This document shows positions 4,265 through 21,645 of a DNA stretch of 64,000 nucleotides, piece after piece. The DNA lies in IMG/VR virus record IMGVR_UViG_3300000062_000468. One strand, written 5' to 3'. The DNA comes from a virus. The translations under genes and the position numbers were made by a program. Within the stretch, counting starts at the first letter, position 1. Every line of letters begins with the position of its first letter. The notes under the pieces were generated by a model. That model did not search any database, had not been told where the DNA came from, and saw nothing but the letters and a program-made list of their open reading frames with translations.

Positions 4265-5485
4265 TTATTCAAGGTCTATTGGATATGCTCCAACAATTCC
4301 GTTTTTATTAATTACACATGCCAATTGTGCAGCTTTTCCAGATAATCTTTTTTCAATGGTGTAATCACAACCACTTCCACTCAAGCAACCACCTCGCAGC
4401 ATCTTAATACCATTCGCATCATCCAATGCCGGAGTATGCATATGAGCAAATGTCACTCCATATGGAAACATTTTCAACATACTACATAATTTAAGAACAC
4501 CTTGAGTCGTAAATGGGTCGTAATCTCCGTGGACATTAAGAAAATCTAAACCTCGTATTGTCATCTTAGAAATACCGACATCGATATTATTTTCAATAAA
4601 TGTGAAGTTTTTGGTGTATTTGAGCGTTTTTTTCACAAAACGTCCTATCAAATTATCAAGACGCTCATCTTTTAACGCTTCATCCTTTTTTGTCATGCGA
4701 CTATGGTTGCCAGAAACATCAGTCACATATACATGTGTAAAATGTTTGCACAATTCATAACAAAAAGATGAGATATATTCTACGGCAAGTTCGATTTGGT
4801 CAATGACATTTTCTCTGTTCGCAACTTGAATTGTTTTGTGAATATTGCCCGATATTAAATCACCTGAAATAGATATATAACAATTTTCGGAATTGTGTAA
4901 TCTAGCAAGCTGTAAAATAGAAGATAGGTATTTATCCAATCGTTCTTTTGCTATATCTGAGTTATATTCTCCAAAAGGTGACGAGAAACATTGCCCTAAA
5001 TGCAAGTCTGACAATATAACCATCATGTCGTTATCAGAAGTAATACAAGGAGCATCCTTTAGTTCAAACTCAACTTTACCGAACGCCTCCATGCGTTCTT
5101 CTAAATAGTCCAATTTTTCTTGAACTCTTGAATCAATGAAATTTTGTTTTTGCCATGCGTTACGCTGATCCCTAAATTGAATTTTTGCTCGTTCTAATTC
5201 ACGGATTTTAATATCTAATTCTTTTTCTCTATTAGATGCACTTGCTAAATCAAAAACTCCTTCATCATAAAAACAGTTTGCATATTGAACTTTTTTTCGC
5301 AATGCAGACTCGTCTACATATTTCGGATTTTCTTCATCTTTAAAAAATTCACGATTAATAATATCAATACAATCACTCCAATGTGGTAATTGTTTACTTT
5401 CTATCTTCTTTCCGATGCGCCATAAGTAATGATATTTTTTTTCGTCAGGCTTTCGGATTAATTCGTTTAAATTATATGTACTAAT
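4265..5485 (-). CDS. Calcineurin-like metallophosphoesterase with N-terminal coiled coil; probable ATT start at 5485
   Basis: Motifs SDLHLG, GDLI, GNH, HGD and HMH. The frame stays open for 61 codons upstream of the annotated TTG (5302), up to an ATT preceded by AAAGGGTGA. Confidence 0.8.
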   Translation of the reverse strand: MSTYNLNELIRKPDEKKYHYLWRIGKKIESKQLPHWSDCIDIINREFFKDEENPKYVDESALRKKVQYANCFYDEGVFDLASASNREKELDIKIRELERAKIQFRDQRNAWQKQNFIDSRVQEKLDYLEERMEAFGKVEFELKDAPCITSDNDMMVILSDLHLGQCFSSPFGEYNSDIAKERLDKYLSSILQLARLHNSENCYISISGDLISGNIHKTIQVANRENVIDQIELAVEYISSFCYELCKHFTHVYVTDVSGNHSRMTKKDEALKDERLDNLIGRFVKKTLKYTKNFTFIENNIDVGISKMTIRGLDFLNVHGDYDPFTTQGVLKLCSMLKMFPYGVTFAHMHTPALDDANGIKMLRGGCLSGSGCDYTIEKRLSGKAAQLACVINKNGIVGAYPIDLE

Positions 5486-5499
5486 AAGAAATCACCCCT

Positions 5500-5703
5500 T
5501 TATCCTAATTCTTGTTCGGTATCTTGTTCGAGAACAAGTTCCTCATCATCTTTAAGTTTCAGTTGAAGCTCTACGAACTCATCAGCGAATTCATTTAGCG
5601 AATCATCAATATTAATTGATTCACCTTCAGCATCTAATAACCCTGCCGCCTTGAGAGTAGTAGTGGTAGATTTCTTATAACTCATAGCATTTTTAGCCAT
5701 CAT
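5500..5703 (-). CDS. Small acidic protein, YonK-like
   Basis: GGAGG RBS before ATG ATG GCT. Size, sequence start (MAKNAMSYKK) and position resemble SPbeta yonK. Confidence 0.5.
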   Translation of the reverse strand: MMAKNAMSYKKSTTTTLKAAGLLDAEGESINIDDSLNEFADEFVELQLKLKDDEELVLEQDTEQELG

Positions 5704-5871
5704 TAATTTCCTCCGTTTATTCTTAATATTCGTGTTTTCGTGCAAAATGCACTATATAAAATATTTAATGTCGTGAAAAATTTGTGAAAATTTCCAATAT
5801 ACTATTTTTAAAATGTAAGATATACTGTAGTTAGTGAATTTTTAAATATTTTTAGTGTGATAAAACAAACA

Positions 5872-6039
5872 TTATAAAGTTTTTGCTTTATCAGCATAAT
5901 AATCTTCAATGTATCGCCTGTTTACTGTTTTTGTAAAACCAATATGATTTCCATTTTTAGTCATGAAGCCATTATGGTTTTGCATTATAAATTCATTATC
6001 TAATAACTTTTTAACTTCGTATTTTGTTATCTGTTTGAT
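5872..6039 (-). CDS. 55-aa hypothetical protein with probable ATC start
   Basis: AAGGAG lies 8 nt before ATC AAA CAG; the frame is open to the TAA at 5872. Not in the ORF track. Confidence 0.45.
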   Translation of the reverse strand: MKQITKYEVKKLLDNEFIMQNHNGFMTKNGNHIGFTKTVNRRYIEDYYADKAKTL

Positions 6040-6505: not shown

Positions 6506-6519
6506 GATATTTAATATTG

Positions 6520-6930
6520 TAACCATAACAGCTACGTACAAACTCAACGCCATATGTTTAGAGCGATGAAAATAACTCGTAGATTTCATCGAATTTTATT
6601 TATTGTATTTTAAACTTTAATATCAGCTTTCGGCTGAGAAAGAAGTTTGAAATTTAAAAACTGATTTTTGAACGCTAAACTTTGAACTCTATATCCTTTA
6701 TTTGCATCATCATGTGCAATCGTATTATGTAGGAGAAACGTGTATTCAATCAAGATACACATTTCACGTACTAATATTTACCATTCTTGGTCTATTAGAA
6801 TTTTGGCTTAACACCAGCTTTTATTCATCAATTAACCCATTGATGAGAGGGAAACATGTTGAGAGTTTTCGTTATGGTCACAAAAAGCCCCTACGACTAG
6901 TAATCTAAGCGCAAGGGCAGTAGAGTATTT
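6520..6930 (-). ncRNA. Candidate structured RNA between the coiled-coil gene and tRNA-Glu
   Basis: No credible minus-strand ORF. Successive hairpins: TCATCAAT/ATTGATGA, GTGTAT/ATACAC, TTGCA/TGCAA, TCAGC-CGAAA-GCTGA, GATGAAA/TTTCATC. Confidence 0.35.
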
Positions 6931-6937
6931 CTATATT

Positions 6938-7567
6938 TTACAATTCTACATCAATGAATGTTGTCGCATTTGATAATGTAAGAGCAGTATCAACATTAGC
7001 TAAGAAACCTTGGGTTGCGTCATACATTGCCGCAATTTCCTTATCAGCATCGAAACCGGAAACGATTTCTTTCTTACCTTTTTCCTTGATACCAATTAAA
7101 ACGTCAAGCTCTTCTTTACTCAAAACTTTTGTGTCATCTTTCTTGTTATTATCTGATAGAGAACGGATTTCATCATCTACATTACTATTGTAAGCGTTGA
7201 CTTGTTTCTGCGCACATTCATTTTGCTGTTGAATAATAAGTAGTAAATCTTCATCATATTCAATACTAGTCTTACGTTCAATAGCTTCGGCAACAGTCAT
7301 AGTTTTATCATCAATAGTAACTTCTGTTTCTGCATTTGATTTAACAATAGCAGACTTCATTTTGTTACGATTTTCAATCAAATCTAATACCGATTGAAGC
7401 GCAGCCTGACTATCTTTCTTAAATTCTTCTTTATCCTTAGTTCCGACCTTTTGTTTATCGCCGATTTGACCAAAGCTTACAAAGTTTGCTTTTGTAGCCT
7501 TTTCAATTTTCTTATCGTATAGTTTTAATTCGTTTAATGCTTGGGTAATTGTGATTTTGTTTGTCAT
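6938..7567 (-). CDS. Helical/coiled-coil protein, possibly distantly DIP1984-like
   Basis: 209 aa with ITQALNELK, MTVAEAI and a C-terminal SNATT. GGAGG RBS. Confidence 0.6.
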   Translation of the reverse strand: MTNKITITQALNELKLYDKKIEKATKANFVSFGQIGDKQKVGTKDKEEFKKDSQAALQSVLDLIENRNKMKSAIVKSNAETEVTIDDKTMTVAEAIERKTSIEYDEDLLLIIQQQNECAQKQVNAYNSNVDDEIRSLSDNNKKDDTKVLSKEELDVLIGIKEKGKKEIVSGFDADKEIAAMYDATQGFLANVDTALTLSNATTFIDVEL

Positions 7568-7599
7568 AATATTTCCTCCGTTTATTCTGATTATTTGTT

Positions 7600-8160
7600 G
7601 TAGTTACAAATAGAAGAGTGCCTACCCACTCACAACTCCAAGATACTAAACGCTTCAGTCCTCTTCGGACAAAGTGATAGGATTTGTTTTATTCGTCACG
7701 GATGCGACACGAATTTCACTTGAAGGATGTCCTCTCCGGACTAGAATGACAATCGTTCACGATTATTTTTTATACAGGGGAGTGCCCAGTTCGGTCATTA
7801 CGAATCTCTCAGCAAGTGAGCCTGTTATAATACTAGATTTAACATTTCTCACTTATACGGCTGAGATACACCAGAGTATTACTTACTTGTGGATGATATT
7901 CTACATTTACGTCCCGTCATCCACGGAGACTATTTGTATCAACAATGTTTATGGGCACATTGTGAAGCCTGATTTTTCGATTTGTCTCTCGATTGTAAGA
8001 TAAGATACTGTTGGGTCAATATTCTAACCAACTTGAAGACCTCCACCTGCATTTGGTATCACTCACACAAGCTTCATCAGCCGAAAATTTCTACGGACTT
8101 CGTAAAGACAGTAGAATGTGTCTTCTATGCTTTGTTCAGCAAACAGCCAATGATTTTTCT
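7600..8160 (-). ncRNA. Candidate large structured ncRNA (ROOL/GOLLD size class)
   Basis: About 560 nt with no minus-strand ORF, raised GC and many nested stems (7889-7896/7917-7924; 7808-7820/7848-7865; 7751-7764; 7658-7670). Confidence 0.5.
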
Positions 8161-8368
8161 CTTTGTATATTCAATCTTCTTAATTTGTCGTTGTTCGCCT
8201 AGAAAAGAAGTTTTTCTTTCCATAGTAGGCGAATTTGCCAAAATCGCTGTAAACCGCATGGTTACTGGGTTTGTGAGGGTTTTGGAGGAAATTGGCGTTT
8301 TTCAAAAACCGCCTCAAACCCTTGTGGTTTCTAGGTTTGTGCATGGTTCAAACCTCAAATGAACTCGT

Positions 8369-9484
8369 CTACTTTTCTTTGATATTCTTGTTTTTACGCT
8401 TCCATTCACGCTTCTTCTTTTTTTCGTTTTCTATGTAACATTCAGCACATCTAATACGTCTTGACGATGGCTCTATTTCAACCTCACAACCACAATCTAC
8501 ACATTTGATTATCTTGGTTTCAATCTCTTGATATCCGCTACACTTCTTACAATACTTTTGATCGGATTTTATTGGCGTGTATTTCTTACCACAATGAAAG
8601 CATATCTTTTTATCACTTGGAATATTAGTTTTGATATTTTTTAGTATCATTTCCCCAAAGCATTGCCATAATAATTCCTTGTGCGGCGTTTTCTTTTTAA
8701 ATAAATGTTGAACGAGCGTATTACAAATGTCATCATCAGAATATTGCATTTCGACAAACTGCTTTTTAATATCACTCATAATAGCAGAAACGTTTTCCAT
8801 ATTTTTTTGATTAATTTTAAAATGATAATTCTTATTAATCTTATTATACGCATCAATTATCTTTTTTTGAGCAGTAGATGACGGTAGTGGTTTTTCGCTC
8901 ATCAATTTTCTATAGTTAAATAGTCCATACTTACTGTTATCAAATTTCAATTGACGAGACACAATTGCTTTTTCCAGCCTATCCACCAAACTACCACAAT
9001 TCCTTTCCACTTGAGACTTCTTATCGTCCTTTTTGTCTTCGTGTTTATTTTTTGCATATTTAAAAAAATGAGGCAACTTATGTTTGGTGTATACATTAAC
9101 ATTATCATTGATATTATCTGGTCGTGCAATAGTATATAAGGTTTTTGCCATATCTATACAAAAGTTATTTTCCATACAAAGAACCTTAATTGTATCAAGC
9201 GCCTTCCTTTTATCCTTTTCACTTGCATTTTCCCAATCTACAAAATTCCAAATTTTTGAAATTGCATTACTATAATAACCAATATTCCCACCAGTATATG
9301 CAGCATTTAATCCTTTATAGATTGACTCTGGATTTAATTCTACAGACCTAGCCTTTTTCATTTCATAGTAGAGTGGTAATATATTTTTTTTATCATTATT
9401 ATTTTTACTACCATTATTCATATTGCGTTCTGCCATTTCTACAAAAGTCTTGTCAGCAACAACTAGACTTTTGTCTCCGTCAAC
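8369..9484 (-). CDS. yonO: YonO-like single-subunit RNA polymerase, exon 2
   Basis: Begins GTT GAC GGA GAC (VDGD), completing the catalytic motif QFD|VDGD. Has a C-terminal CxxC zinc ribbon. Confidence 0.85.
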   Translation of the reverse strand, partial: VDGDKSLVVADKTFVEMAERNMNNGSKNNNDKKNILPLYYEMKKARSVELNPESIYKGLNAAYTGGNIGYYSNAISKIWNFVDWENASEKDKRKALDTIKVLCMENNFCIDMAKTLYTIARPDNINDNVNVYTKHKLPHFFKYAKNKHEDKKDDKKSQVERNCGSLVDRLEKAIVSRQLKFDNSKYGLFNYRKLMSEKPLPSSTAQKKIIDAYNKINKNYHFKINQKNMENVSAIMSDIKKQFVEMQYSDDDICNTLVQHLFKKKTPHKELLWQCFGEMILKNIKTNIPSDKKICFHCGKKYTPIKSDQKYCKKCSGYQEIETKIIKCVDCGCEVEIEPSSRRIRCAECYIENEKKKKREWKRKNKNIKEK

Positions 9485-10473
9485 CAACTCAACATATTAG
9501 TTGAGTCAGACTATATCATAACCATATCATTTCTGACTTAGGTTCTCAGCGCTTCCACTCTACGAATTTCACGCAGAATGTACTCTACTTGGTTATTCTC
9601 GTATGTCCTGTACGGTCACACAATATCCTTTCGATAGTCGTTTGAGTTTTATAGAATAAGATATTATAATTTCTTAAAAGAAAAATGTTTGTTGTATTTT
9701 TTATTATTTCTAATACATTTGTTTATTTGACTTCGCACACCTTCAGGATGTGAAGCATTTGAATATCCATTATTAATCATATATTCACAACACGGAATCA
9801 TATAGTCAAACGTTTCTACAAAATCATCATAATATAGTGAGATTTTTGACATCTTCCGTTTTGGATTCCTTTACGTCCTTGTTTTTCTATAGCTAAAGCC
9901 TTGTCTAATTTATATTTTTGTGACAATTTTCTATTTCCATAATTAGGATTATTTTTACCGTTCATGTCATGTCTGTTAACCAAACTGTATCTAATATTAT
10001 CGACACGTGATATCCACTCTAAGTTTTCTATGGTAGAATCCATTCTGTTGTAATTTTTATGATTTACTTCTGGCAAGTTATGAGGATTAGGTATAAAGGC
10101 TATTGCAACTAATCGTGCAACTCTAACACTTCTCCATCCTTTATCTGGTATTTTGATTGCACAAACAGAATAACCATCTGCATTGTAATATGTATTTCGT
10201 TTATTACCATTCCAAATAACATTACCTTTAGTAGATATTTCTATATTTGTTCCTTGATAATTTATTGTTTTCCATTTTTCTCTTTTAAATAATCACTTCC
10301 TTTGCAATATATTTATCTTATTCTATATTTACCACAGGATTCTTTCGTTCCCTGTCAGCACATCTTCTAATTGTCATTTCCTACAATTCCTAATCGTAAG
10401 ATGTACACCCTAGATTTCTAGGTTCACTGAGTTTTATATCCCCATGTTTCCATGGGGTTCGACATTAAAGGTC
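9485..10473 (-). mobile_element. Group I intron (989 nt) in the RNA polymerase gene
   Basis: The 5' exon ends in U, with P1 TTCGAT/GTCGAA giving a U.G pair at the splice site. P2 CCCCATG-GAAA-CATGGGG; P3 CTCAG/CTGAG; P7 elements AACGACTA and GATATAGTCT; P9 ACTCAAC/GTTGAGT; terminal G. Confidence 0.9.
9664..10290 (-). pseudogene. Intron-encoded NUMOD4/HNH homing endonuclease, frameshifted
   Basis: Translation gives EKWKTI..VARLVAIAFIPNPHNLPEVNHKNYNRMDSTIENLEW. The ORF is split into pieces and has no intact start. Confidence 0.8.
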
Positions 10474-12270
10474 ATCGAATTGGAGTATTTTGCTTATTGG
10501 ATCGTGAACGCTGGTATATATCGCATTCGTTGTAAACCACTTCTCAATATGCTTTTCTATAACATTTTTTCTAACTGCATGTTCTCTGAAAAGGTGAGGG
10601 CTTCTTAAACAATCTAGTTTTTTATACTGTCTATATAATTTACAAAACACCTCTTGGTTTTTGAGTAATCCCTGTGGGTTATCATCGCCACAAAATAGTT
10701 TTTCGCAAAAGGCATATAAGTCTGGAATCAAAAATGTATATTTGCCTTCAATTTCTAATTTTCCAGCTCTAAAATTTTTCACCAAACTATTTTTTATACC
10801 TCGTAATACCGCTTTAGTATGTTCGTCTTTTAGCAGCGCCGGATATAATTCTAAACATTGCTGAAAAGGGGTTTTATTCCTATTTGTCTTAGTAACTCCA
10901 AAAACACGATACATTGTGTCCATGTCGGAGGTTAGTTGCTTGAGTGTATTATTTGAACCCTTGACTAAATGATTAAATTCTTCTTTAGTAACATCAGTTA
11001 ATGATTGCAACATCTGATAATTTATAGTGGCTCTTGGAATAAAGTCTTCTTCTATATTACATACCCCAGCTTGACAATTATATTTCTCAAACCAGTCTTG
11101 ATACTGTTCCCACGACTTGTAATAGTTGTACATTTTGAATTGACTCTTGGTAAATATCACCTCAATATTATCTTCAAGAACGTTCCACTCTTTATCATAG
11201 ATATCCTTTACAATAGGAGAGCAGTCATCATGTTCTTCAATAAATTTTTTAAAATCAAATACTGCAAGCAAACCTTTGACCCACGGGAGTCTTACCATAA
11301 AGTTTTTCTTACTAACCGAAGGAAGTATCATTCCACATCCATCAGTATGAGGAATTGGAACATCCATCGTCTGTCTATTTATCTTGTAAGTCTTGTAGTT
11401 AATGAAATCGACCTCTGTGTTAACATTGGTTTCAAAATCTGGAACTACTATACATTTTTTAATATCAAACGTTTCCCATAAGTCCGTAGCTGAATTACAT
11501 AGTGCCAAGTAGGCTAAATATTTATTTACGTTTACGCCACCAACCTTATTGATTTTATCTATGGTTAAACCGCACATAAGACTTGGTTGCAATACTTTCC
11601 ATACAGACTCTCTTATAAATACAGTTTTCTTAGTTCTTATTTGTCCAGCAGACGAGGTGAAGTATCTGTATTTTTCTCCGTTATACATAAATCCATTTTT
11701 AACCAACTGCTCAATGACATCGTAGAAAAAAGTTTGAACCACTATAATATCTTTTGTAAGCTCATTCGTTTTCATATCGCCCAATCGTGTGAGAGTAGAT
11801 TCGAAGATTGATATTTTTCGCCAATCTGTCAGCCTGTTATCTTTAAGCTGGCGACAAATCCCGGACTTGCGACTTAAAGTACGCAATAAAAGTTCTTTGT
11901 ATTCTCTGATGGTCTTATTTATGTTGTCTATTTGTAAATCGGGATTACCCTTTAATATATCTGGTATCTGTTTGGAAAAATTTCGACTCTTGTGAAAAGC
12001 TCGTCTTAGTCGTCGTAACTTCCTAAGAAAAACAACCTGTTCTCGTGTGGTCATGTTTTTAAATCCTAGACCGTCACCACCTTTCATTTCTTCAATATCC
12101 TTTTTTATCTTTTCTTTGATTTTTAAATAGGTTGGCTTGGCGGATTCACTTTTGCATTTCTTTTTCAAACGAAGTGCATCAGTCATTTTTTTATGTATCG
12201 CCTGTTCTCTTCTGGTATAAAAGCAGCCAGTATCAAGAGAGTAAATATGTATTTGTCTATTTAGCGCCAT
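10474..12270 (-). CDS. yonO: YonO-like single-subunit RNA polymerase, exon 1 (spliced product about 970 aa)
   Basis: Motifs FTSSAGQIRTKK, DGCG, FMVRLPWVKG, CLRSPHL and LQFD. These belong to the RdRP-related phage RNAP family exemplified by SPbeta YonO. Confidence 0.9.
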
Positions 12271-16269: not shown

Positions 16270-18306
16270 TTTTGCTATGGCTAACTCGTTTCAACCGTAT
16301 ATTTGCAGATGCCATAGTAAAATTCGCTATGGGGTATGCCGTATTTGCAGTTCAAACGATTAGGTATTATAAGTAAATATATAAGTAAATCATATTGGAA
16401 TTTCTGAAATTATTTATCCTAATATATTTCCAATTCTAAACTATGTACTATCATCTAAATCAATATTTAGTAATGGTACTATCTCTGACCTATACCAATA
16501 CTGTAAGAAGCAGTAGATTAACTTGTAGTCTGTGTTATCTCTGTTCTTATTATCCCTGTATCTGTATGTAGATGTAATCATGTGTAATAGCTATTCTCCT
16601 TTCCAAGTTGTTGTAATTAGTAAGTAGTTAAGTAAATGACTGCTGATGAAATGTAAAAGCAACTATGTGGAATAATTGAACTTTTGAACCGAAGATAAAA
16701 TCTAGTGTTAGCTTAGTACTGATACTCAAATGTGTATGTGGGTGTGTTACAGATATGAATAATCTGTAATCTATGAGATACCAATACTAAAACTAAGTGA
16801 ACTAGATAGTTGTGTGCTACATGAAAAATATCTTAATGAAGCCATAGATGATACTTGCGACAACAGGAACAATTAATATACTCTTCAGCCATGCTGCTGT
16901 ATCAAAATATTCATTTCCTCTTTTGTCTATTTTCCAGAATGTACCTTTCTTCATATGTGTACTCCTTTCAGTGAAACTTGTGAGATTGATATATGTATTA
17001 CTCAGCTACTATCGTAGCCTCGTTTGAGGCTCCTACGTCGCATCAAAATAGTGTGATTATTTTTGGGAATATGAAATAGTACTCCGCTCAGTATAACACA
17101 GATAAAACAAAAGTCAACACAATTTTGCAAAATAATTGAACTTTTGCAATTTGTGATTTTGGCTATATTCGGTCAGGTATCAATTTAAGTATTCGGGAGA
17201 TTGAGGTAGTGATGACTATTGAGATGATTAGGAATGTAGAGCTTATAAGGGATTGAGTAGGATATCTGGAGTGATTAAGGGATGATATTGGAACCAGTGC
17301 GGCATAATAATAGGATGTAAGTAGGTATGATTCGGTTGAAAGTGGCTTATTTACTGGTGTTGTGAGGTGTAAGATTGGCATATTTGGATATAATACCATA
17401 TTCTTGAGATCAGGAAAATGGTAGAAACGTTGGATTTACGGGGTTCGCTCGAATTGAGTGTCGAATGAATAAGTGCTAAAAACGTACATTTTTCGTTGAG
17501 GGTGATTCGGGGTGATTAAAATTTGAATGATAGGAATAATTAAGACATAGGGGTATATGGTGAAAAATTTTGCTGATTAAAAGTGTAAACCCACCCCCTC
17601 GCAAACCCTTTAAAATAAAGGGAAATTTGGCAAATCTGGTAAAAAGCCAAATTTTTATAGATAAATTTTTTGTAGGTACTAGCTAAAAGGAAAGGTAAAA
17701 TACGCAAATGAAATTCTCGATTTTAAAGATATTACTACGACAGATGCAATAATATCGATTTGGTTGCAGATGCAACAGAATGTGAAAAGTGTTATAACAT
17801 ACCTAACTAATATGTTTAATGAGAATTGGCATAACCACTCACTATCAAGCAATCCTAACACATACCAATCAACTATGTATTGAAATTATACCCGAATAAA
17901 TCCCACCTAGTAACAGCCGAAATTCCCCAATATACAACGATTCCTACAATATCCTTATAACATACTATTTTACTATGTATAACTACGCAAAGCAAAAATA
18001 CAATTTTCCTCTTGCAAAATGTCTTATCCTGTAATACAATAATCTTGCCCACGAAAAACGAACAAGCGTTCTGATTGTTTTGGCTTGGTATATGCTACAC
18101 GAGCACACTAGGCATAAGCACAACACAAAAAAGATACATCTAACAACTACATATATACTTACTACACCAGTAATACTACATATAATAACCTTAAATTAGC
18201 CATGTTATAACTGCTACCCATACTATACCATACCTAAGCTACTTTAAATCCATTCTGGCAGTTAAAACATACAGTACTATGGGCATATACAACAAGCTAA
18301 TGCTAA

Positions 18307-18729
18307 CTAATCCTCATCTTGCTCTACTTTAGCAGTAAAGAGGTTAACAGGCTCTGTATCTTCTTTAGTAGTAGTGGTAGCATCTTGTACAAGTGTCCGT
18401 GTTTTGCCTATCTGCTCTGGTGTAGGTGGTCTGTCTTTTGCGGGAGATAGCTCTTGCAGCTCTTGCAACCGTGTCTGGTACTCCTGTAAGCGTTGTACCT
18501 GCTCCGCTTGTGTGGGAGTACTATCTTCTATAGAATAGTGTAACTCGCAACCGATAACATTACATATGCGTTGTATATCCGCAAAAGATAGGTTTTTTTT
18601 GGCAAATGTTGCGTGTAAATTTTGTCCACTTATACCAAGTTTTTTGGCGACATCCTCTACAGTATAACCTCTGTTTTTTATAGCCATTTTAATATAATTT
18701 ACAAGCCTTGTATTATCTTCAAATATCAT
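18307..18729 (-). CDS. XRE/Cro-family HTH regulator
   Basis: TVEDVAKKLGISGQNLHATF helix-turn-helix. Confidence 0.8.
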   Translation of the reverse strand: MIFEDNTRLVNYIKMAIKNRGYTVEDVAKKLGISGQNLHATFAKKNLSFADIQRICNVIGCELHYSIEDSTPTQAEQVQRLQEYQTRLQELQELSPAKDRPPTPEQIGKTRTLVQDATTTTKEDTEPVNLFTAKVEQDED

Positions 18730-18835
18730 TAATTTCTTTCCTTTCTTCTATATAAATGTATTTCTGCTAGTAGTATAACATATCTACTAAACAAAGTAAA
18801 ATGCTTTGATATAAAAATATTTTTATAAAAAAGAG

Positions 18836-18864
18836 TTGACAATACAAAAGTGTTGTGATAAAAT
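18836..18864 (+). promoter_or_regulatory. sigmaA promoter
   Basis: TTGACA-17 nt-TAAAAT with extended TG. Confidence 0.75.
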
Positions 18865-18932
18865 ATAGCTAAGTCAAAACAAAACACTTTGACATCAACA
18901 AAAAAAACTTTCAAAATAAAGCAAAAAAAGTG

Positions 18933-18961
18933 TTGACAAAGAAAACTAGATATGATATTAT
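18933..18961 (+). promoter_or_regulatory. sigmaA promoter (tandem copy)
   Basis: TTGACA-17 nt-TATTAT with extended TG. Confidence 0.75.
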
Positions 18962-19474
18962 AGCATCAACAACAAAACAAAACACTTTGACATCAAAACG
19001 AATTAACAAATGCTTTAATGCAGTTAGCACAGTGAGGGAACACTACACAAGATGAGGTAGAACACAATCACAACGCTAAGAGGTCGCAACTCCTCATTAA
19101 ACATATGCAGAGCGAAGCAATAAAAAAGAAGTCAAGGGAGTGCAATCCCTCAACTTCTCCGCTACCAACAGAGTTGATAACATGTATTCAATATACACAT
19201 ACATTCTATCAATTCTTATAAGAAAAGTCAATCAATTCTGATTGGACAATTTCCCAAAAAGGTAGCAAACGTAACAACCGTACCTTGACAGTAAAATATA
19301 GTAGCGACTGAACTATACCGCATGAGCAGATAGGAAACTATCGAAGCGAAGATTGCGAGCATACTCGGCACTTGATACAAGGGCGAAGGAATCATAAGTT
19401 GCGAATTATTGACGCATCAATTGCCACGCTATGTAATCAAAAAGCGTGTAAAACATACATATAGAAGAACAACA

Positions 19475-19507
19475 AAAAAGAGCCTTCCATGTTTGGTTAG
19501 GCTCTTT
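19475..19507. terminator. Probable bidirectional terminator hairpin
   Basis: AAAAAAGAGCC...GGCTCTTT. Confidence 0.6.
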
Positions 19508-19543
19508 ACATATATAACAGGGTGGCTACCTGTTACAGGGTAG

Positions 19544-19756
19544 CTATTCATTTTCTAATTCCTCAATTTGACGATTAACTTCGTCAAGTTGTTTTTGAAG
19601 TTCATCAACTTCTTGTTGTGATTGTTTGGATTTTTCTATACTTTCTATAGCTTTATCCATTGCTTTACGTTGGGAATTTCCACCACCACAGGCGGTTAAA
19701 GTGAAAGATAAAATTGATAATGTTGAAACTGTTAAAATGATTTTAATTTTCTTCAT
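19544..19756 (-). CDS. Small lipoprotein
   Basis: Signal peptide with lipobox LTAC, followed by a short coiled coil. Confidence 0.75.
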   Translation of the reverse strand: MKKIKIILTVSTLSILSFTLTACGGGNSQRKAMDKAIESIEKSKQSQQEVDELQKQLDEVNRQIEELENE

Positions 19757-19771
19757 TTGTAAAATCTCCTT

Positions 19772-20071
19772 TTAGTTGTCTTGTTTGCGAGGAACGAAAT
19801 TTATTTCTAAATCGTAGCCGATAGCGTCAGTAATTTCAAGTAGTCGGTTAATACTAATATTGCTATTTAAGCGACTGTTGAGTGATTGAGGGGTTATATT
19901 TAGCTTGTCAGCTAGTGTTCTTTTAGTCATGTTGGCATTAATTAAAGCAATATCAACATGACGTTTTAACTCTTTTGAGTTGGTACATATCATAAAAATA
20001 CCACCTTTCATTGTGAAAAATAAACATATATCCGTACTGATTATTAGTATAAACTTATGCAATAGTAACAA
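19772..20071 (-). CDS. XRE-family HTH regulator (true start probably at MICTN)
   Basis: TKRTLADKLNITPQSLNSRL helix-turn-helix. Confidence 0.75.
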   Translation of the reverse strand: MLLLHKFILIISTDICLFFTMKGGIFMICTNSKELKRHVDIALINANMTKRTLADKLNITPQSLNSRLNSNISINRLLEITDAIGYDLEINFVPRKQDN

Positions 20072-20096
20072 ACATGAAATAAAATACGGAAATATC

Positions 20097-20125
20097 TTTA
20101 CAAATAAGGTTGAGAGTGCTATACT
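20097..20125 (+). promoter_or_regulatory. sigmaA promoter
   Basis: TTTACA-17 nt-TATACT with extended TG. Confidence 0.65.
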
Positions 20126-20407
20126 TAATTCAAGTCAAAGAGATAACAACTAATCAACAAACACCTTTGACCTACATAAACAAACGAACTTTGATAATTA
20201 AATAGTGGGGGAGGACAGAAAAAACGTTGGTAACGAAAATCCATCACTTCCCACGGACGCAAGTGAATGAGCCACTAACTCAAACTTGCGTGACCTTAAA
20301 TACATTTGCATTATAACCCTAAACGGTTAAAAATGCAACAAAAAAGAGCCTTCATTGAGTTGGCGCTCTAGGCTCTTTCTTAAACGAAAGACTAACCAAA
20401 ATACAGT

Positions 20408-20551
20408 TTACTTATTGTAGTATTCGCTAGTGATAGACAAATTGCCGAATGAAAAGTTGAAGCTTTTCAAATTGGCTCTTGCTAAACACATAGCACTAAT
20501 GATAATACAAGTTGCGACTATAATAAGTAACTTTTTGATTTTAGTAGTCAA
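20408..20551 (-). CDS. 47-aa hydrophobic peptide, type I toxin-like (copy 1)
   Basis: GGAGGTGA RBS 7 nt before TTG. Sequence MTTKIKKLLIIVATCIIISAMCLARANLKSFNFSFGNLSITSEYYNK. Not in the ORF track. Confidence 0.65.
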   Translation of the reverse strand: MTTKIKKLLIIVATCIIISAMCLARANLKSFNFSFGNLSITSEYYNK

Positions 20552-21087
20552 TAATGCTTCACCTCCCTTCATGGGAGATTATGAGCAGTTGCCATGACTG
20601 CACACAACAAGAGTATATCACACAAGTTAAGCGAGGGCGATATATGAATGTATTTTACGACTACAGCAATCAGCAATGGTATGTTGTAGAAAATGGTAGA
20701 TATATAGAAGTAGAAAGCGATTCAGAAGGCTACGACTATATAGAAAGCCAACTAAACTAAAAACAAATAACGTTTTTTTCATGTAACATATAAACAGTGA
20801 TTTCTCATTTCAAATTAATTATTGTTGAAAGTAGGCACAATCACAAGCGACAAACACAAGCAACCAAAGGGGCAGAAAATATACCTTTTGATGATATGCT
20901 TCGTAATTGCAAAACGTTAGAATGTGCCTATTATTGAGCAATATAATAACAATGACACTTGAAAAAGTAAGAAACTTCTTATATAATAGGGAAAGAAAAG
21001 GGCGAGAATTACCAAATGCGACCATATGGTCGTTTTTAGGATAAGCGAGCACGTGCTCGTATTTGAAAAAGGCGGTGATAATTTCAC

Positions 21088-21297
21088 ATGACGATATATC
21101 AAAAAGTAAAAACGGCTTGCATGATAGAGGGTAAGACATTAACCGAAGTAGCGAAAGAATTTGGCTCAAGTCAACAGACTTTTTCACAACGGTTACAAAC
21201 GGGCAAGTTTACACAAGAAGAACTTGAACGAATATTTTCAATTATTGGTTGCAAATATATATCTTATGTAGAACTATCAGACGGGAAAAGGCTATAA
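21088..21297 (+). CDS. XRE-family HTH regulator
   Basis: TLTEVAKEFGSSQQTFSQRL helix-turn-helix. Confidence 0.8.
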   Translation: MTIYQKVKTACMIEGKTLTEVAKEFGSSQQTFSQRLQTGKFTQEELERIFSIIGCKYISYVELSDGKRL

Positions 21298-21372
21298 AAG
21301 GGGCATTGTACTAATTTTGTATAGTGCTTTTTTGTTAGGAAAAATCACGACACAACAAAGGGGTAACAGAGA

Positions 21373-21645
21373 ATGAAAAAGACAACATGGGAAGAAGTTC
21401 AGTCGGAAATAAAGGCACTAGAAGGGCAAGTTTTTGAGGATATCAGCGAGGTAAACGAGACAATCATATGTGCATTTGGCGATTATTCTTACTACAACGA
21501 AGCGGAAGTATTAGTATCTGAATCATTTTCGTGTTCTCACCTGAAAAAATATTCAGCTTACGTCAATCATGCCAAAGCGCCAATGATTGATTTTACTTTA
21601 TACATAAATGGTGGAAATTTAACACTAGATGACGTAATCGTATAA
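21373..21645 (+). CDS. Hypothetical protein
   Basis: 90-aa ORF, first gene of the plus-strand early arm. Confidence 0.7.
   Translation: MKKTTWEEVQSEIKALEGQVFEDISEVNETIICAFGDYSYYNEAEVLVSESFSCSHLKKYSAYVNHAKAPMIDFTLYINGGNLTLDDVIV

Follow-up and report, generated by a model that had tools for sequence, protein, structure and literature searches.

What is made from the open reading frame (ORF)-free gap that follows the RNA polymerase (RNAP) gene in the virus record IMGVR_UViG_3300000062_000468? The 64,000 nucleotides (nt) analysed here, hereafter the window, had received a first-pass annotation in which this gap was read as a candidate large, ornate non-coding RNA (ncRNA) whose size and location would fit the ROOL/GOLLD class. 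We find that three abutting segments of the gap (7969-7836, 134 nt, one orientation) each match one unit of a different tandem-repeat RNA, and that the two most prominent stems listed for the supposed large RNA are the hairpins of individual units resembling type III antitoxins. Type III antitoxin RNAs are cut by their toxin from a repeat precursor and then inhibit it. We put at about an even chance the reading that a phage ncRNA decoy locus, with one unit each of cptI, tenpI-like and toxI type and no toxin gene, makes up the core of the gap (about 8019-7606, minus strand).

Three different repeat units in a row

The first of the three segments is of the cptI type, with a CAATGT-loop-ACATTG hairpin, a 5' TTC and a 3' TGATACAA tail. 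It matches internal units of CptN-linked arrays at every non-loop position, and the Rfam model Fusobacteriales-1 (RF02920) aligns to it with 40 bits (E=0.0013), below its gathering score of 52.1 bits; the window has one consensus unit, and arrays of this kind have about 2-3.4. Public collections scanned with the hairpin pattern CAATGT-N8-ACATTG-N-TGATACAA yielded one viral contig (L161) and 59 metagenome loci, most with tandem arrays of 2-3 units, and a CptN homologue lies at most 250 nt downstream on the same strand in 37 of the 39 arrays of at least two units. In locus L212, for instance, the array is followed by a terminator and then by a 171-amino-acid (aa) ORF homologous to CptN (PDB 4rmo, E=3.7e-7). 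Complete loci are also present on the Clostridium botulinum plasmid pNPD1_1, whose toxin matches the NCBIfam CptIN family (E=2.7e-15), and on the Clostridioides phage pCD1602_4. Because 37 of the 39 arrays precede CptN, as identified by the PDB and NCBIfam matches, we assign arrays of this unit as cptI antitoxins of CptIN type III toxin-antitoxin systems, a family described as having repeats of 40-48 nt in 1.9-3.4 copies and as including Fusobacterium (PMC3401426). The stem is invariant across copies and offers no covariation evidence either way. We rejected a role of the CAATGT hairpin as a repeated operator on its single occurrence in the window. As an observation in its own right, RF02920, which is filed as a cis-regulatory motif, corresponds in these data to the cptI array of CptIN loci (L162-L220, L223, L224).

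Over 42 nt, the second segment (7930-7889) shares 90.5% identity (E=8e-5) with a 53-nt repeat present in 3.1 copies on 16 Apilactobacillus kunkeei plasmids, where the array has its own promoter (TTCAAT-17-TATACT). A 126-aa ORF located 86 nt from this array matches the NCBIfam TenpIN toxin family (E=2.3e-7, 31 bits, cut-off 90). Taking the tenpI type to be a 39-57-nt repeat upstream of a TenpN gene, we tentatively call the unit tenpI-like; the viral collection contained no match to it. One of the plasmid loci (L222 1444-2074, OX335109.1) resembles a rearranged or disabled tenpIN-like locus that has retained its antitoxin array.

The third segment (7881-7836) is 91% identical over 46 nt (E=4e-11) to L212 492-536, which lies between the promoter and the first cptI unit of that locus. 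The unit is also 86% identical to the viral locus L221, in which three tandem units of ~36 nt and a terminator are followed by ToxN (Pfam PF13958 E=3.8e-39; PDB 4ato 1.5e-18); the same arrangement is found in a sampled Clostridia genome (L231), with a ToxN homologue detected by tblastn. The stems of the array copies covary (TCTCA/TGAGA, TTCGC/GCGAA, TCTTG/CAAGA). Because the matching arrays precede ToxN and their stems covary, 7872-7836 is a toxI-type unit: it has the ~36-nt length, the covarying 4-5-base-pair (bp) stem and the A-rich tail of units arrayed before ToxN, in a single copy. An inverted partial copy of its core further downstream (7820-7808) pairs with 7866-7842 in the predicted fold, which yields the nested 13-bp hairpin listed in the first-pass annotation; this copy could sequester the toxI-type unit or could be a rearrangement scar. 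Two of the matching loci deserve mention for themselves. L212 (465-1194) specifies a hybrid RNA in which a promoter, one toxI-type unit, three cptI units and a terminator precede cptN, so that antitoxin units of different families are mixed in a toxin-bearing locus too. In L221 (12328-14708, IMGVR_UViG_3300045988_151923), the complete toxIN is flanked by genes for a PemK/MazF-like toxin and a GmrSD-like nuclease, a small phage defence island.

Solitary cptI-type units were also found in L161, together with its relative L208, and in L188, both of them YonO-type lineages. In L161, L188 and the window alike, the ORF-free stretch with the unit lies upstream of a phrog_284 exonuclease gene. The three lineages have in common ~45 nt (TC-GG-YTTCACAATGT ... 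ACATTGTTGATACAAA), and the flanks cannot be aligned; the unit was thus kept while its surroundings diverged, which suggests selection on the unit. No CptN was detected in the whole 105.9-kilobase (kb) L161 contig (68% complete), with pCD1602_4 positive as a control. The stretches that surround the unit, at 4712-6020 on the minus strand of L161 (1.3 kb, abutting a tRNA gene) and at about 60-850 in L188 (0.75 kb), are ORF-free, GC-rich and structured in appearance. They gave no Rfam family, no homologues and no further array matches in the flanks; they may contain further RNAs.

The window's three units stand behind a putative promoter whose layout resembles that of cptIN loci: in L223, TTGACG-17-TACAAT lies about 33 nt before the first unit, and in the window ~22 nt separate the promoter from the first unit base (7969) and roughly 30 nt separate it from the hairpin stem (Table 1). 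In a type III locus the toxin gene directly follows the repeats and terminator; here the next gene encodes a phrog_1491 protein, and tblastn detected neither CptN nor ToxN in the window (TenpN was not among the queries). The small hairpins between the inverted copy and the terminator (7807-7632) had no related array in the phage, plasmid and viral scans or in the sampled Clostridia and Bacilli genomes. Two of them, of the GTCC-GRAGA-GGAC kind, were considered as a fourth repeat family and rejected, as the viral scan returned only acidic coding repeats of high-GC phages.

The units could be genuine antitoxins whose toxins are encoded by the same phage outside the window; type III loci split in trans in this way might, for instance, help to maintain a prophage or plasmid or to exclude superinfecting phages. 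The 64 kb cover only part of the phage genome, the RNAP protein has been recorded on a contig as long as 288,751 bp, and Clostridia phage-plasmids carry type III loci, with toxIN reported on a C. botulinum phage (PMC3401426). However, the toxin gene lies no more than 250 nt downstream in all 37 toxin-linked arrays, with no split locus among them, the 68%-complete L161 contig combines a solitary unit with no CptN, and three different toxins would all need to be encoded remotely. We therefore give this arrangement a slim chance.

Table 1 Features of the gap, its neighbours and corresponding sites in other loci (L numbers).
Feature	Position	Strand	Remarks
RNAP, N part	10465-12270	minus	YonO-like single-subunit RNAP; phrog_8308 positions 2-550; Pfam RdRP
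RNAP, C part	8369-9487	minus	phrog_8308 positions 551-845
Conserved leader directly 3' of RNAP gene	8200-8368	minus	Outside putative decoy core; aligns with L002 and L086
Leader counterparts	L002 3630-3874; L086 about 5000-5110		Distant relatives
Hairpin-bearing segment, 150 nt	8020-8170	minus	Includes TTCTAC/GTAGAA
TTCTAC/GTAGAA stem	8116-8089	minus	Read directly; also in predicted fold
Putative sigma-70-like promoter	8019-7992	minus	TTGACC-16-TACAAT; consensus scan, 10/12 matches
Single cptI-type unit	7969-7930	minus	GGCTTCA-CAATGT-(8-nt loop)-ACATTG-TTGATACAAATAG
Single unit of 53-nt repeat RNA, tentatively tenpI-like	7930-7889	minus	Hairpin GTGGATGA/TCATCCAC
GTGGATGA/TCATCCAC stem	7923-7888	minus	Listed in first-pass annotation; present
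Single toxI-type unit	7881-7836 (match); 7872-7836 (unit proper)	minus	GGTGTATCTCAGCC..AAGTGAGAAATGTTAAATC
CTCAGC+AAGTGAG / CTCACTT+GCTGAG nested stem	7866-7808	minus	Listed in first-pass annotation; present
Inverted partial copy of toxI-type core	7820-7808	minus	CTCACTTGCTGAG; read directly
Small-hairpin segment, ~175 nt	7807-7632	minus	AATCG-UGAA-CGATT and two GTCC-GRAGA-GGAC hairpins
AATCG-TGAA-CGATT hairpin	7764-7751	minus	Direct reading
GTCC-GGAGA-GGAC hairpin	7741-7729	minus	Second copy of GTCC-GRAGA-GGAC kind; direct reading
GTCC-GAAGA-GGAC hairpin	7670-7658	minus	Direct reading
Terminator-like hairpin (GAGTG/CACTC stem, then T-rich run)	7631-7606	minus	GAGTG-GGTAGG-CACTC then TTCTATTTGT; direct reading; only terminator-like site in 7400-8600
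Ribosome-binding site of 209-aa gene	7579-7575	minus	GGAGG; 27 nt past terminator-like hairpin
Gene for 209-aa phrog_1491 protein	6938-7567	minus	Next co-oriented gene after RNAP C part
ncRNA sites of relatives	L003, L008, L013, L020 (about 7550-8180); L047 6110-6603; L038 5613-5720; L058 5747-5834; L054; L015		

One large RNA or several small modules

The gap very probably specifies a non-coding RNA from the gene strand. As had been noted at first sight, it lacks a coding-strand ORF and has raised GC, and it is even longer than the ~560 nt then proposed: between the stop codon that ends the RNAP C-terminal gene (8369) and the ATG that opens the 209-aa gene (7567) lie 801 nt (7568-8368). Its longest minus-strand ORFs are 37-54 aa, and its GC content, 0.38-0.43, exceeds that of the flanks (about 0.29-0.36). 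On the plus strand, two ORFs of 109 and 126 aa were rejected as genes on their low-quality translations and zero family matches. Decay of a protein gene was rejected too, given these ORFs without a family match and the lack of an HU/YonN-like remnant: the small HU/YonN-like gene that lies 3' of the RNAP in most relatives left no tblastn trace in the gap or the window.

The window belongs to a large SPbeta/YonO-type phage or prophage whose host is low in GC, and its genes lie on the minus strand. The nearest RNAPs to the N part are those of C. botulinum phage-plasmids (55-57% identity), and the nearest to the C part is that of Clostridium phage D-1873 (42%). Single-protein scans of the viral collection found no close relative of the phage, the top RNAP identity being ~50-57%. 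Six tRNA genes, the phrog_284 exonuclease and an integrase lie beyond the 209-aa gene. The RNAP gene itself is interrupted exactly at position 550/551 of the phrog_8308 profile by ~980 nt (9488-10464), an insert that contains a degenerate HNH endonuclease ORF (9816-10076) and gave no intron match in Rfam at E<=1.

A place in the ROOL/GOLLD class was not supported by an Rfam search: 7400-8500 gave no ROOL, GOLLD, OLE or raiA at E<=10. When known large RNAs were considered more widely (HEARO and others included), the sub-threshold Fusobacteriales-1 match was the only notable result at that limit, and the whole window gave only tRNAs at gathering score. As positive controls, the same search returned ROOL at ~400 bits in four related loci (L003, L008, L013 and L020) and GOLLD at 172 bits in L047, against gathering scores of 99.1 bits (RF03087) and 150 bits (RF02032), respectively. 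No full-length homologue of the gap turned up among the phage and plasmid collections or in ~250 loci that were related or matching. Only individual units or the leader described below were matched by blastn in phages and plasmids and by nhmmer and blastn in 160 RNAP-anchored loci, and 800 sampled Clostridia and Bacilli genomes yielded only individual units or chance-level short matches. The stretch is thus pieced together from small modules and does not form a single ornate fold.

The location, by contrast, had been fairly argued from its closeness to tRNA genes, as YonO-type RNAP relatives have ROOL or GOLLD in a comparable place. We compared the surroundings of RNAP C-part homologues at 160 loci, 80 of them from viral contigs and 80 from bacterial genomes, chiefly Lachnospiraceae (identity at most about 50%). 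ROOL (4 loci), GOLLD, DUF3800-I and skipping-rope RNAs lie 0.6-3.3 kb downstream of the YonO-type RNAP, together with tRNAs. The region downstream of this RNAP is a recurrent ncRNA niche in this phage group, usually beside tRNA genes.

Every stem listed in the annotation was found on direct reading of the minus strand, so the description of the gap as packed with stems holds as far as their presence goes; folding is only modestly above chance. Minimum-free-energy z-scores are -2.47 for the minus strand, with 1 shuffle in 100 folding equally well, and -1.09 for the plus strand, and pieces of the gap rank only 20th-82nd among 425 sliding 300-nt windows after GC correction. Folding energy alone is weak evidence here, and the strong signal is the homology of the hairpins to known repeat RNAs. 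The most stable GC-corrected folds of the window lie elsewhere, at 19051-20700 among small early-region ORFs (z about -3.3, both strands), and had no match in Rfam or among repeat RNAs in plasmids; the structured gaps at 6506-6937 and 16270-21400 gave no repeat-RNA matches.

These data bear on the possibility that the whole gap is one large, new, fast-evolving ornate RNA in the ROOL/GOLLD niche, with the antitoxin-like hairpins as built-in modules or convergent look-alikes. Such an RNA would be at home downstream of this RNAP gene near tRNAs, the long GC-rich, ORF-free stretches of L161 and L188 surround the unit in a syntenic place, and the minus strand folds better than the plus strand. We nevertheless consider it decidedly unlikely, as no large-RNA family matches even at the permissive E value, the three phages have no sequence or detectable structural conservation beyond the 45-nt unit, the fold stability is unremarkable within the window and a different small repeat RNA accounts for each conserved piece.

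Across the 160 loci, the only conserved part of the gap is its first 130-170 nt (8325-8200), present in L002 and L086. This leader aligns with the spacer between the RNAP gene and the next gene of L002 (nhmmer E=3e-5), with common blocks that include ACAAACCYAGTA and TTACAGC-ATTTT, and it may serve as a late promoter or terminator element of the phage RNAP operon. In L002, 245 nt separate the RNAP gene from a remote analogue of the 209-aa gene; because this spacer leads at once into that gene, ~600 nt (about 8170-7568) are extra in the window. The segment at 8020-8170 had no homologue in the phage and plasmid collections, the RNAP-anchored loci or the sampled Clostridia and Bacilli genomes.

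The leader raises the question of whether the entire stretch is an ordinary regulatory spacer, or the 5' leader of a late operon that begins with the 209-aa gene, its hairpins acting as terminators, antiterminators or RNase processing sites. Its location, with the phage RNAP gene on one side and the next gene of like orientation on the other, the terminator-like hairpin 27 nt before the ribosome-binding site and the conservation of the first 170 nt in L002 and L086 would all be in keeping with such a role. Yet L002 joins the same two genes with its 245 nt and lacks the core, and a leader role leaves the 85-91% identity to units of three toxin-linked repeat RNAs unexplained. We hold this explanation to be very improbable.

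Possible antitoxin mimicry or decay

Antitoxin mimics are phage-borne, toxin-less and type III repeat-like, and the window locus has these three properties; with moderate confidence, we regard it as a multi-family variant of the antitoxin-mimic idea. What we observe is each unit's sequence identity to repeats of toxin-linked arrays, the close spacing of the units in one orientation, a window without CptN and ToxN genes, and the recurrence of the solitary cptI-type unit in a corresponding location of other phages. From these we infer transcription, processing, toxin binding and an effect on infection, which would run as follows. The RNA would be transcribed from its own sigma-70-like promoter, possibly also by read-through from the phage RNAP operon. 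Infection would cut the supply of the host's own short-lived antitoxin RNAs, and host endoribonuclease toxins (CptN, TenpN-like and ToxN) would cut out and bind the phage-supplied units instead. The toxins would stay inhibited and abortive infection would fail.

Published work offers precedents for parts of this scheme. A single CptI repeat is fully antitoxic (PMC4627078), and phage PhiTE escapes ToxIN through pseudo-ToxI repeats at an intergenic locus or through recombination with toxI (PMC3475682). The occurrence of cptIN loci on Clostridium and Clostridioides phage-plasmids also counts for the decoy reading, the window RNAP being akin to those of C. botulinum phage-plasmids.

Several points weigh against it. 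The 1.5 repeats of wild-type PhiTE are inactive until expanded (PMC3475682), and the window has one unit only per family, of which the toxI-type unit can be locked in the 13-bp hairpin formed with its inverted partial copy. Phage resistance has not been demonstrated for cptIN (PMC3401426). Only 64 kb of the phage are covered, which leaves room for a toxin gene in the remainder. Of the 560 nt first annotated, about 60% (8160-8020 and 7835-7632) is not accounted for by decoy units, and the promoter is a consensus match only, promoter-like sites in the region not being enriched over shuffles. The tenpI-like label comes from a sub-threshold match (31 versus 90 bits), and the TenpN-like ORF behind it is N-terminally short and, rather than following the array, converges with it.

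The units could also be recombination debris, left over from decayed toxin-antitoxin loci. Complete cptIN loci occur on related phage-plasmids of Clostridium and Clostridioides, and toxIN on a viral contig; the inverted partial toxI-type copy resembles a rearrangement scar, the Rfam model takes the segment just upstream of the intact cptI-type unit for a degenerate first hairpin, and the inactivity of the natural 1.5 repeats of PhiTE (PMC3475682) would be in line with decay. On this account, though, decay must have left exactly one intact unit from an array of each of three different families, all standing head to tail in one orientation within 134 nt and with the promoter kept. The cptI-type unit is 100% identical to functional array units at its non-loop positions, the solitary unit has been kept in three divergent lineages whose flanks are beyond alignment, and tblastn finds no toxin gene remnant in the gap. 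Debris is on balance unlikely.

A fuller version of the decoy reading is tentative and, in our estimate, somewhat short of an even chance. It would have a temperate SPbeta/YonO-type phage of low-GC anaerobes join cptI-, tenpI-like and toxI-type units in a single promoter-driven transcript, with the remaining hairpins perhaps being further decoys and the solitary cptI-type unit being an ancestral, conserved counter-defence of the phage group.

To our knowledge, experiments have documented mimicry of type III antitoxin RNAs in essentially a single phage, PhiTE, and for a single toxin family. If the decoy reading is true, a natural, multi-family, toxin-less locus would suggest that RNA decoys are a general and modular form of counter-defence, to which the conserved solitary unit adds. 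It would also point indirectly to an action of CptIN against phages in nature, so far undemonstrated (PMC3401426), and the units would be ready-made reagents, each matched to a named toxin gene. For annotation, the Fusobacteriales-1 database entry is clarified, being a cptI array rather than a cis-regulatory motif in these data, and where big phages have long gaps that look structured, a check for antitoxin units should precede the naming of new ornate RNAs.

Relation to known RNAs and phage mimics

The locus resembles ROOL and GOLLD in its niche, as these RNAs occur in large phages with tRNA genes and, in relatives, downstream of the YonO-type RNAP, and in the similar length of its ORF-free stretch. 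It differs in that no model matched at the thresholds used, no global fold is conserved and the stretch is modular, being composed of small repeat-RNA units.

Closer likenesses are found among antitoxin arrays. With cptI arrays (Blower 2012, PMC3401426; Rao 2015, PMC4627078; RF02920 included), the window has in common a 40-nt unit that is the same outside the loop (CAATGT/ACATTG, 5' TTC, 3' TGATACAAAT tail) and the promoter layout. It has one unit compared with 1.9-3.4 in tandem, no terminator-plus-cptN downstream and a sub-threshold Rfam score, and the crystallised CptI of E. rectale is unrelated in sequence to the window's unit. With the toxI arrays of ToxIN/AbiQ-type systems, it has in common a ~37-nt unit with a 5-bp covarying stem and an A-rich tail, which matches the first units of the L221 and L231 arrays; unlike them, it consists of a single unit without ToxN and adds an inverted partial copy able to sequester it.

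The pseudo-ToxI locus of PhiTE (Blower et al. 2012, PMC3475682) is likewise an intergenic, toxin-less copy of a type III repeat in a phage, gained or remodelled through recombination with a toxin-antitoxin locus, and is proposed to act by RNA mimicry against a host endoribonuclease toxin. PhiTE, however, has 1.5 repeats of one family (toxI) that needed expansion, whereas single complete units of three families stand here behind one promoter, in an SPbeta/YonO-type phage of a low-GC Firmicute. A further parallel is provided by RNA anti-CRISPRs, solitary CRISPR repeat units of phages in which a lone defence-RNA repeat misdirects its protein partner. The lone-repeat logic is the same, although the target is CRISPR-Cas in one case and toxin-antitoxin systems of type III in the other, and the RNAs are unrelated.

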